DNA of 64,000 nt from Candidatus Kapaibacterium sp. (lineage in GTDB: Bacteria; Bacteroidota; Ignavibacteria; Kapaibacteriales; UBA2268), in assembly GCA_963678775.2 (NCBI GenBank), contig CAXXGR010000004.1, positions 136,747 through 200,746 on the forward strand, given 5' to 3'. The notes beneath the pieces were generated by a model. The model had not been told where the DNA came from and ran no database searches. It saw only the letters and a program-made list of their open reading frames with translations. Both the position numbers and the translations under genes were made by a program. Shown one piece after another: positions 52,240-54,691 of this stretch (the first letter of the stretch is position 1; the number at the start of each line of letters is the position of its first letter).

Positions 52240-52284
52240 AAAAAAAGTGGGCAGTAAAAACAATTACCTGCCCACATTTTTTTT
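52240..52284. terminator. Hairpin formed with the left direct repeat; likely the original mltG terminator
   Basis: AAAAAAAGTGGGCAGTAA pairs with TTACCTGCCCACATTTTTTTT. Confidence 0.6.
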
Positions 52285-52376
52285 AAATATTCGTATATTT
52301 TTAGAGTGTCCGGCCAAATCTTCCGAGAAGTTATGCTTACCACTTCCGTCTCCTAATGCCACCATATAATACCATT
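52264..52376. repeat. 113-bp direct repeat, left copy (duplicate of the mltG 3' end)
   Basis: Identical by eye to 54579-54691; begins exactly at the mltG stop codon (TTA). Confidence 0.95.
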
Positions 52377-52436
52377 GAGAGTATAATGCACATTTCATTC
52401 CTAAAACCGGCTATTAACTTATTAACAGTCAAATAT

Positions 52437-52468
52437 GCTAACTATAGTATGTAGATTTAGATAAGATA
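52437..52468 (+). promoter_or_regulatory. Putative C-box of the controller protein
   Basis: ACTATAGTATGTAGATTTAGAT resembles the GACT-TAT-AGTC-GT-GACT architecture of C.AhdI/C.Esp1396I operators; lies upstream of the AGGAGG RBS. Confidence 0.4.
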
Positions 52469-52495
52469 TTCAGCTATATTTATTAGGAGGAAATT

Positions 52496-52729
52496 ATGGG
52501 AACAGATATGCTAAAGTCATTCGGATCCGAAATAAGAAATTTACGGATGTCAAAGAATCTATCGCAAGAAAGATTAGCAGAAATAGCTGGTGTGCATAGA
52601 ACTTATATAGGCATGATAGAAAGAGGAGAAAAGAATATTTCACTTGCAAATATTGCAAAAATAGCGAAAAGTTTAAATATACATATTTATGAAATATTTC
52701 AGAGAATAGAATGCCAGGAAATGAACTAG
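52496..52729 (+). CDS. R-M controller (C) protein, XRE HTH
   Basis: LSQERLAEIAGVHRTYIGMIERGEKNISLANIAKIAKSL. Confidence 0.85.
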   Translation: MGTDMLKSFGSEIRNLRMSKNLSQERLAEIAGVHRTYIGMIERGEKNISLANIAKIAKSLNIHIYEIFQRIECQEMN

Positions 52730-53475
52730 AGATAGTAAAATTTTTACTTTCAAGAAAAGGCAAAATTGTATTACCCCATGTTGGTAAAGTTGACAAAATC
52801 TCTACACCCATCAAAAATAATTTGATTAGTGAAATAATCTACCCTGAAGATATTTCTTTAGTTACATCAGATAATTCATCAAAAAAAGCAGATATTTTAC
52901 TTAATGACATTGGTATCTCACTCAAACAAACAGGTGCTAGTTTTGCTTTTAATAGAATTCAAAGGGAGAGTGTAGTTTCATTGTTCAAGTTATTGAAGAT
53001 TAAATCCCCAAGAAAAATATTAGATAAACTTGATCTGGAAGTTGATAATTTTCATAACGGTATCAATAGCTCTAGGTCTAGACCATGGAGAAATATTTTT
53101 ACTTTACAAGATTTTACTATAATTTTGCAATATTTGATGATGAAAGGAAGTCCTAACTTGAGAGAATCTTCCTTTCCTGCACAATATATTATAGAAGGAA
53201 AACCTAAATTAAATGTAAATAGTGATTTAAAACTATTTACATTTGAAGAATATTTAGAAACTTATCAAGACAACTTATTTGTTGCTATCCGAAGATGTTG
53301 GTATGGACAATCTAGTAAATCAGAACATAATAGGGCAATGTCATTGATGAAGAAAAGTGGGAATACTAAGTGGATTTACGATAACGTCAGTGGAACTCCT
53401 AAAGGTGAATGGAGAGATAATATTGCTGAATCAGACAGGAAAACAGTGTACTATATTTCTATAGAGAAGAAATGA
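52711..53475 (+). CDS. Putative type II restriction endonuclease (PD-(D/E)xK-like)
   Basis: Lies between and overlaps the C and M genes; [14 protein letters not shown] resembles a nuclease catalytic motif. Confidence 0.6.
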
Positions 53476-54563
53476 AAAATAATAATTATAAAATCGCATC
53501 TTTCTTTTCTGGAGCTGGCGGATTAGATTTGGGATTTAGTTTGGCTGGTTTTGATATTTCTTGGGCAAATGAATATGACAAAACAATATGGGATACTTTT
53601 GAATATAATCATAGACATACTTTTTTAGACAGAAGAAGTATTACTGATATTAAATCAGAAGAAATTCCTGAAGTTGATGGAATAATTGGTGGTCCTCCTT
53701 GTCAAAGTTGGAGTGAAGCAGGTGCTTTAAGAGGTATAAATGATAAGAGAGGAGAATTATTTTACGATTTTATACGAATTATTTCAGAAAAACAACCTCG
53801 ATTTTTTTTGGCAGAAAATGTTTCAGGTATGTTATTGCCTTCGAATAAAACTGCTTTGGAAAACATAAAGAAGTTATTTATTGCTAGTGGTTATAAACTT
53901 TACTTTAAATTACTAAATGCATCTGACTATGGAATTCCACAAGACAGAAAAAGAGTTTTTTTTATAGGTTTTAGATCTGATTTGGATATAAATTTCAATT
54001 TTCCGATTCCAACATTTAAGAATAAAACCTTTTTAAAAGATGCAATTTTTGATTTAAAAGAATGCGCTATACCTGCTGCTGAAAAAAATAAGGCAAATAC
54101 TAAATGTATCGTTCCAAATCATGAATATATGACTGGTGGATTTTCGTCCATATTTATGTCTAGAAATAGAGTTCGTTCATGGGATGAACCATCTTTTACT
54201 ATTCAGGCAGGAGGAAGACATGCACCATTACATCCACAAGCTCCAAAAATGCCTTTAGTAAAAGAAAATGTTCGCATCTTTGTGAAAGGCAAAGAAAATC
54301 TATATAGAAGATTAACTGTTAGAGAATGTGCAAGAATACAAACTTTTCCTGATGATTTTATATTTCTTTATGATAATATCGCCAATGGTTATAAGATGGT
54401 GGGAAATGCCGTACCTGTTAATTTAGCTTATATTTTAGCAAAAGAAATTATAGCTCATTTGCACAGTACAAATACTAAACATAGTATTCCTCCAAAATGG
54501 GAAGAAGTTAAACAACTAATTAATCAGAATCATTCAGAACCAGTACCTTTAACCTTGTTTTAA
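53472..54563 (+). CDS. C5-cytosine DNA methyltransferase, HaeIII/NgoPII-like (predicted GGCC)
   Basis: [73 protein letters not shown] recalls M.HaeIII. Confidence 0.9.
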
Positions 54564-54578
54564 ATACAGCAGAAAAAT

Positions 54579-54691
54579 TTACCTGCCCACATTTTTTTTA
54601 AATATTCGTATATTTTTAGAGTGTCCGGCCAAATCTTCCGAGAAGTTATGCTTACCACTTCCGTCTCCTAATGCCACCATATAATACCATT
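54579..54691. repeat. 113-bp direct repeat, right copy (current mltG 3' end)
   Basis: Identical by eye to 52264-52376. Confidence 0.95.

Follow-up and report, generated by a model that had tools for sequence, protein, structure and literature searches.

The 3' end of the mltG gene is present twice in the window (the whole stretch of 64,000 nucleotides that was analyzed), and between the two copies lies a predicted controller-regulated, GGCC-specific Type II restriction-modification (R-M) cassette. The cassette likely entered this site in a single insertion that involved no recombinase encoded by itself, and its later spread to a sister species was likely by homologous recombination.

Exact direct repeats of 113 bp bracket an insert of 2202 bp (52377–54578; Table 1). 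Their edge coincides with the mltG stop codon, each copy comprising the last 37 codons and the stop of the gene on the minus strand, and these were the only two full copies found in the 3.7-Mb genome. GGCC occurs in both, at repeat positions 49–52; its absence from the insert is uninformative since about one site would be expected there. This anatomy, with mltG left intact, was proposed in a sequence-only reading of the window and proved exact to the coordinate. The insert's GC content is 30.2% in comparison to 34.9% for the genome, and 54 of 1683 windows of the same size were equally AT-rich. As a chance control, 26 out of 3000 random 2.2-kb windows of this genome had exact direct repeats of 35 bp or more in their 1.5-kb flanks. 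Right outside the repeat there is an 8/12 similarity (a longer match of 125 nt at 97%), which may represent microhomology or chance.

Table 1. Features of the mltG locus and the R-M cassette in the window.
Feature	Position	Strand	Basis or remark
PLP-dependent enzyme of alanine-racemase-fold/D-serine-dehydratase type (left host neighbor)	51016–52116	+	3' half nearly letter-identical in G003
Tract nearly identical to sister genome G003, inferred recombination tract	51448–54611	.	13 differences in 3164 bp vs. 92% average identity
Predicted bidirectional terminator hairpin	52240–52284	.	Folding energy and z on both strands
Left repeat, a stranded duplicate of the final 113 nt of mltG; GGCC at 52312–52315	52264–52376	-	Mosaic in G003
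C-box-like operator (TATA core, central TGTA) 5' of the controller gene	52435–52464	+	Same motif at homologous loci
Controller (C) protein of 77 aa with HTH_3; its gene overlaps that of the nuclease	52496–52729	+	PADLOC Control_protein, Pfam
Predicted restriction endonuclease, 254 aa, unnamed family	52711–53475	+	Predicted fold, conserved residues, gene neighborhood
C5-cytosine DNA methyltransferase, 363 aa	53472–54563	+	Closest solved relative M.HaeIII
Right repeat, functional last 37 codons and stop of mltG; GGCC at 54627–54630	54579–54691	-	Sequence
mltG (endolytic transglycosylase), intact, convergent with the cassette	54579–55604	-	NCBIfam MltG TIGR00247 above cut-off; Pfam YceG

The two repeat copies are not equivalent. 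A hairpin that pairs left-flank sequence with sequence of the left copy folded with -21.9 kcal/mol (z -4.3) on the minus strand and -18.3 kcal/mol (z -5.2) on the plus strand, whereas the sequence presently 3' of mltG folded only weakly (-8.5 kcal/mol, z -0.9). Since the strong hairpin requires both the left flank and the left copy, the left copy is likely the original gene end. We infer from the folding that the hairpin, a predicted bidirectional terminator, served mltG before the insertion, in agreement with the previous suggestion of a terminator stranded at the left copy.

The first gene of the insert encodes a controller (PADLOC Control_protein, E 8.7e-22) preceded by a C-box-like motif that also occurs 5' of the C genes at homologous loci; the C-box consensus was taken from PMC2504287. 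A C protein and a C-box 5' of the C and R genes, the marks of a controller-regulated Type II R-M system, are both present. As in the Esp1396I, AhdI, and PvuII systems (PMC2504287), the HTH controller is co-oriented with the nuclease gene and overlaps it, with the C-box-like operator ahead, but here the methyltransferase gene follows in the same direction with a 4-nt overlap. The methyltransferase matched M.HaeIII with E 4.5e-130 and the next enzyme, M.HhaI, with E 1.5e-41. As it aligned with M.HaeIII (PDB 1dct, 3ubt) over almost its full length including the recognition region, GGCC is its predicted specificity, and the earlier naming of the operon as C-R-M with this target was upheld. The cassette departs from the HaeIII system in having a controller gene and C-box at the head of the operon and a nuclease that matches neither Pfam RE_HaeIII nor any other Pfam family. 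In the promoter scan, no promoter of the methyltransferase's own was identified and no excess of promoter-like sites was seen. GGCC is depleted genome-wide (O/E 0.42), but ratios of 0.23–0.44 (small samples) were obtained for genus members devoid of the cassette, hence the depletion says nothing about the cassette and was rejected as proof of its activity.

The nuclease had no match in Pfam, NCBIfam, PADLOC, or the PDB sequences. Protein search retrieved 88 other homologs of 36–50% identity. RE_HaeIII (PF09556) matched none of 68 family members at E up to 1, and the assignment to the HaeIII system proper was therefore rejected; none of 33 distant profile matches of the nuclease matched Pfam or PADLOC either. 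Atlas clusters, which provide leads only, placed unnamed clusters first, followed by R-HINP1I (14% of members), RE_HaeIII (16%), and MspI (63%). A structure model built from 68 of the 89 protein-search matches reached pLDDT 94.9. Its top four structural matches in a limited structure library were HinP1I (two entries), MspI, and HhaI, all restriction enzymes, with moderate Z scores of 8.5, 8.4, 7.5, and 7.1 (rmsd about 4 over 150–169 aligned residues) and the next match at Z 3.5. Foldseek likewise put the HinP1I/MspI/HhaI enzymes first (best E 7e-4). In the alignments, distant relatives included, D61, S70, and K72 (S70-x-K72) were invariant and E5 nearly so; E5, D61, and K72 are candidate counterparts of the HinP1I/MspI/HhaI catalytic residues. 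The model thus displays a PD-(D/E)XK-type fold with conserved candidate catalytic residues, and the protein is predicted to be a candidate new GGCC cutter with a HinP1I/MspI/HhaI-like fold. It resembles these enzymes (PDB 1ynm, 2fkc, 1sa3, 6uke) in predicted fold and size but shares only 9–15% identity with them, no sequence-level match, and has a different predicted site. HinP1I and the GGCC enzyme BspRI are described in PMC2978348 as monomeric and cutting strand by strand; by analogy, our guess would be that the cassette nuclease does the same. BspRI has 304 aa and the cassette nuclease 254 aa.

Nobusato et al. reportedly described in 2000 the insertion of R-M genes with long target duplication, a mode whose mechanism is still not settled. 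The locus shows what PMC2853133 lists for this class, with the exception of an empty site: R and M homologs lie inside the insert (M recognized by sequence, R by fold and neighborhood), the insert is below 20 kb and the duplication above 30 bp, the repeat is not multicopy, and no mobility gene was found in or beside the insert when five neighbors were scanned against Pfam, the others were judged by their ORFs, and the integrase profile was run over the window. The sequence-only reading had therefore assigned the insertion to the right class. The resemblance to the cases in that source extends to a short low-GC insert with R and M genes and no mobility gene, and to unique direct repeats of about 100 bp across a stop codon with the target gene intact; what differs is that here two species carry a filled site, the repeats are mosaic, one candidate circle or tandem junction is on record, and no empty-site genome was found. 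The earlier framing as a Helicobacter pylori precedent reappearing in a distant phylum was overstated. According to the same source (Furuta, Abe and Kobayashi 2010), every R-M type has been found inserted in this way, with cases in proteobacteria, Thermus, cyanobacteria, and actinobacteria, the hosts including Haemophilus, Thermus, Vibrio, Xylella, Campylobacter, Neisseria, Microcystis, Clavibacter, and others, so another phylum adds little, and the duplicated repeats frequently span start or stop codons. The insertion class and the amplification of R-M genes are mentioned again in PMC3874152, PMC2993543, and PMC3031569. The insertion mode itself is hence ordinary for R-M genes. New is the second genome, G003, which has the same insert at 99.5% identity, shares about 0.8 kb of the flank on the left, and shows a mosaic left repeat. 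Since the repeat alleles are marked in both species, long reads or PCR could directly reveal inter-repeat recombination, circles, and the transfer route.

A strong match to the nuclease was found in two of 130 family genomes, this one and G003, and the same two among 117 family genomes with an mltG match carried a duplicated mltG 3' end (four other double matches were split halves). With 2/117, the idea of mltG as a family-wide insertion hotspot was rejected. In G003 the second mltG-end match has the same spacing as here. Over 373 kb aligned from 405 kb sampled, the two genomes were 92.0% identical, the rest of mltG 90.9%, and dnaB 94.7%, whereas the insert, situated at the same site, differed at 10 of 2202 positions. 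The near-identity covers the tract listed in Table 1, with zero differences in 51535–52296, and is the longest of 14 such tracts (at least 500 bp) found between the genomes. Since the inserts are 99.5% and the genomes 92% identical, the cassette likely crossed between the two lineages long after their split, likely by homologous recombination and taking about 0.8 kb of left-flank DNA along. That the two species do exchange DNA is shown by the remaining near-identical tracts, and for the same reason the shared flank need not have traveled with the cassette. Three of the nine coding changes in the insert were non-synonymous (P ~0.003 against neutrality), two of the three in the methyltransferase tail; the cassette genes look purified, which fits a maintained function. 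RecA and a ComEC-family gene are present in the genome.

The search for an empty site, recommended by the sequence-only reading, did not yield one among the four other genus genomes: G003 is filled, and G001, G002, and G004 have a single mltG end without GGCC and with different downstream genes. A joint skipping the insert was seen in none of the eight runs examined, of which X2 and X4 were too thin to be informative, and a degenerate repeat pattern gave 0 matches for an empty site in metagenome contigs. As no empty allele was seen, the empty state is deduced from the split terminator. Run X1 carried G003-type alleles and was not counted as independent of G003. In run X2, a 434-nt contig in the shared flank had one difference, contigs outside it had 8/333 and 13/347, and the insert was uncovered, a pattern that hints at a third lineage.

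Six positions of the repeat (34, 43, 46, 85, 91, and 93) served as markers. Either copy of this genome carries A,G,T,G,T,A there. The left copy of G003 carries G,A,T,G,T,A, its right copy G,A,C,A,A,C, and three outgroups have A,A,T/C,G,A/G,C. The stranded copy of G003 has the derived letters at 91 and 93, which its functional mltG lacks; the allele on which the duplication arose was therefore likely the mltG of this genome. The left copy of G003 is a recombinant that begins like its own right copy and ends like the copies of this genome. The switch point lies at 44–45 if site 46 is old, and anywhere in 44–90 if 46 and 85 changed later. The two repeat copies thus likely exchange sequence, as far as alleles can tell, and the mosaic could be the product of gene conversion, of an amplify-and-contract cycle, or of circle integration. 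This allele history is read from six sites of the two genomes, and part of it could also be imitated by point mutations that came later. The event had been called recent, a term to be qualified: the same insert resides in the sister species with 10 differences, and identity over 113 bp bounds the pairwise divergence at only about 2.7%. Zero differences have a probability of 0.6 even at the divergence between the two inserts, hence the perfect identity does not closely date the insertion.

In the sequence of events that we favor, an illegitimate break-repair event would have copied the mltG end, leaving the old terminator with the left copy. Selection for an intact mltG would account for the boundary at the stop codon, as the gene stays whole only after events of this kind. 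The duplication would have arisen on the mltG lineage of this genome, after which the lineage of G003 would have received the cassette within chromosomal DNA, one crossover lying near 51450 in the left neighbor gene and the other in the initial third of the right repeat. The copies would still recombine by gene conversion or unequal exchange, giving the mosaic left copy of G003. The controller would delay nuclease expression on arrival, and restriction defense or post-segregational killing would retain the cassette despite its deletion-prone repeats; maintenance by either is established for Type II systems according to PMC2853133.

Alternatively, the repeats might release a circle of 2315 bp or build tandem copies, and the circle might re-enter an empty mltG end in another species by a single crossover, i.e., the release and reinfection of a "virus-like life cycle". 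Run X3, a marine metagenome from a separate study, contained one 222-nt contig (depth 2.38) joining the insert end (54578) through the repeat to the insert start. Its alleles are those of the G003 right copy at 34, 43, and 46 and those of the left copy further on (exchange interval 47–84), a right-then-left make-up shared with the G003 left copy, and on a 5-kb stretch only two X3 contigs matched closely, both from cassette or repeat. Against it stands that this is a single contig of low depth; none of the seven other runs examined listed a joint of this kind. Moreover, the two G003 repeat copies share identical blocks of 45 and 38 bp, and as these exceed the 31-letter assembly word, the assembly graph could splice the copies. 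In a simplified assembly simulation without a circle, which was not the real assembler, a chimeric contig arose in 116 of 9600 runs and in up to 28 of 600 in one setting, though at X3-like sparse coverage in as few as 12 of 4342. We put the chances that the X3 junction is real rather than a chimera at about even. Even a real junction would not separate a circle from a tandem array, and a circle would not bring the 0.8 kb of shared left flank. Altogether, we consider the circle route doubtful. Tandem amplification of repeat-flanked R-M genes under laboratory conditions was reportedly obtained by Sadykov et al. in 2003. There, as here, direct repeats around the R-M unit allow unequal crossing-over, but in the present case amplification is suggested by one natural contig and the mosaic repeat. 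PMC2853133 states that amplification of R-M genes was shown and that release with reinfection was not. Within the titles and abstract openings searched, with most subscription papers outside this scope, a circle from an R-M cassette with long target duplication was not found.

A related proposal, that the insertion was initiated by cleavage at the cognate site, assumes that the incoming nuclease cut or nicked an unmethylated GGCC in the mltG end and that repair of the break made the duplication together with the insertion. The site is indeed in the repeat, a mildly unusual coincidence: among 113-bp windows of the genome, 1640 of 32875 (5.0%) contain GGCC, as do 67 of 2074 crude ORF ends (3.2%), and it is missing from the mltG ends of G001, G002, and G004. 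The strict switch point in G003 lies 4–5 bp from the site, the X3 exchange interval covers it, and DNA breakage is suggested as the common cause of such insertions in PMC2853133. However, the site is away from the repeat edges, each exchange interval is either broad or hinges on a single position, and methyltransferase-only inserts occur among the cases in the same source.

The relatives of the cassette bear on this proposal as well. Of 53 homologous cassettes with enough flank for the repeat test, four had long direct repeats: L042 (178 bp, 79%), L044 (127 bp, 97%), L058 (62 bp, 92%), and L158 (257 bp, 88%). Compared with the 26/3000 random windows, this is an excess (Fisher p 0.0016) for which the control comes from one different genome and the loci are not independent. 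The repeats are unrelated in sequence among loci and range from 62 to 257 bp. In L044 and L158, the copied sequence is the 3' end of a neighbor gene on the minus strand, like here; in L042 and L058 it is an upstream region, and these repeats may be something other than target duplications. GGCC was absent from either repeat copy at all four loci. The earlier idea of cleavage at GGCC is therefore weakly supported, and such an initiation seems improbable. No better do we rate the combined scenario in which the cassette loops out as a 2.3-kb circle via the duplicated target, aided by its own HinP1I-like nuclease nicking the repeat GGCC, and re-enters the mltG end in another species, with the G003 mosaic and the X3 contig as its traces. 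If true, it would be a natural case of the missing "release and reinfection" step in the virus-like life cycle of R-M systems.

Integrative elements usually restore the 3' end of their target gene. The restored end of mltG shows this usual footprint, so the insert could in principle be the remnant or satellite of a site-specific element, with the repeats as attL and attR and a tyrosine recombinase that either has disappeared or works in trans; Phage_integrase had five matches above the cut-off in the genome. Yet the window contained no Phage_integrase match, in keeping with the statement of the sequence-only reading that no integrase was involved, and the only one on the contig lies about 140 kb off and scored under the cut-off. 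The insert has no room for an integrase remnant, the duplicated mltG end in just two of the 117 genomes argues against a reused attachment site, and the cassettes of relatives duplicate unrelated targets of variable length. The integrase route is unlikely, and we leave it a slim chance.

Both junctions, which the sequence-only reading had wished to see verified against an assembly artefact, were present in the contigs of X5–X8, four runs of one sample. These runs gave separate contigs for the left flank, the insert, the 113-bp repeat, and the right flank, with 30-base overlaps at each junction and a repeat depth of about twice that of the insert (20, 18.2, 36, and 17.5 for the left flank, insert, repeat, and right flank in X7). 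As the contigs break exactly where a two-copy repeat predicts and the repeat depth is double, and as G003 has the identical structure with different alleles, a contaminant cassette joined via a collapsed repeat can be practically dismissed, although these four best-matching runs stem from one sample that is perhaps the window's own source.

Finally, the nuclease family was surveyed at 121 fetched loci, 110 of them distinct. A HaeIII-like methyltransferase (at least 50% identical to that of the cassette) was located within 1.5 kb at 87 of the 110 and a C gene at 27; of the remaining loci, 16 end at a contig edge and seven have room but no HaeIII-like partner. Three of these seven have another C5-methyltransferase-like ORF, and one (L048) has an adenine-methylase-like ORF, which also adjoins the nuclease copy on a Tolypothrix plasmid. 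Judging by such neighbors, not every family member need cut GGCC. A phage or plasmid as the vector was rejected: one locus lay on a viral contig, phage records gave none, and three cyanobacterial plasmid records had 39.5% identity, none being close to the cassette. With more than 100 loci, the family is unnamed in Pfam, NCBIfam, and PADLOC, and automatic annotation would therefore call such systems orphan methyltransferases.

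The nearest analogue of the window's restriction-modification cassette was found at locus L044, where a C-R-Vsr-like-M cassette encodes a nuclease of the same family (the Vsr-like label is one that we presumed from the start of the ORF). It is flanked by 127-bp copies, 97% identical, of the 3' end of a neighboring gene, and these copies do not contain GGCC. Another C-R-M cassette of this nuclease family, at L101, has a perfect 83-bp inverted repeat, one copy of which lies on the left of the cassette and the other where the contig ends; this suggests a transposon-like form.

Other homologs of the nuclease were accompanied by different partners. 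At L187 and L048, the homolog is paired with a DNA adenine methylase, as annotated on the Tolypothrix plasmid NZ_CP064885.1, hinting that a second specificity may exist within the family. At L103, L104, L136, and L072, the homologs were located amid ORFs with a common 'YLFNN' or 'FLYNN' segment, which stand in place of or beside a HaeIII-like methyltransferase and possibly represent another defense module. A K-x-D...S-x-K core in common with the nuclease was also found in a wider, unnamed set of proteins (P0164-P0216), of 230-270 aa or, in some cases, 500-590 aa, for which no match was obtained in Pfam or PADLOC.

Features located in the window and at related loci
Feature	Sequence	Position
C-R-Vsr-like-M cassette	L044	7508-10507
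C-R-M cassette with inverted repeat	L101	641-4308
Nuclease homolog with adenine methylase	L187	4001-5772
Nuclease homolog with adenine methylase	L048	2541-4136
mltG end	window	54579
mltG-end hairpin	L022	10195-10260
mltG-end hairpin	L023	near 7840
Direct repeat (93 bp, 96%)	window	56908-57000; 59520-59612
Near-identical tracts (region)	G000:C7 (L077:2389-7639)	588713-608566

Among the five genomes of the genus, mltG is followed by four different genes. In this genome (left copy), in G004 and, by eye, in G002, a terminator-like hairpin draws one of its arms from the last mltG codons, and its second arm varies with the downstream sequence.

Elsewhere in the window, a direct repeat flanks the gene for a 788-aa T9SS-sorted protein. 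This gene is absent from the sister genome G003 and from sequencing run X1 (with G003-type alleles), in which the two repeat sites are joined. Comparison of this genome with G003 revealed three clustered near-identical tracts of 1.25-1.5 kb each.

In the whole genome, a single C5-methyltransferase match was detected. The tetranucleotides CTAG, GGCC, and GATC were strongly depleted genome-wide (O/E of 0.29, 0.42, and 0.48, respectively), and CCGG was in excess (O/E of 1.64).
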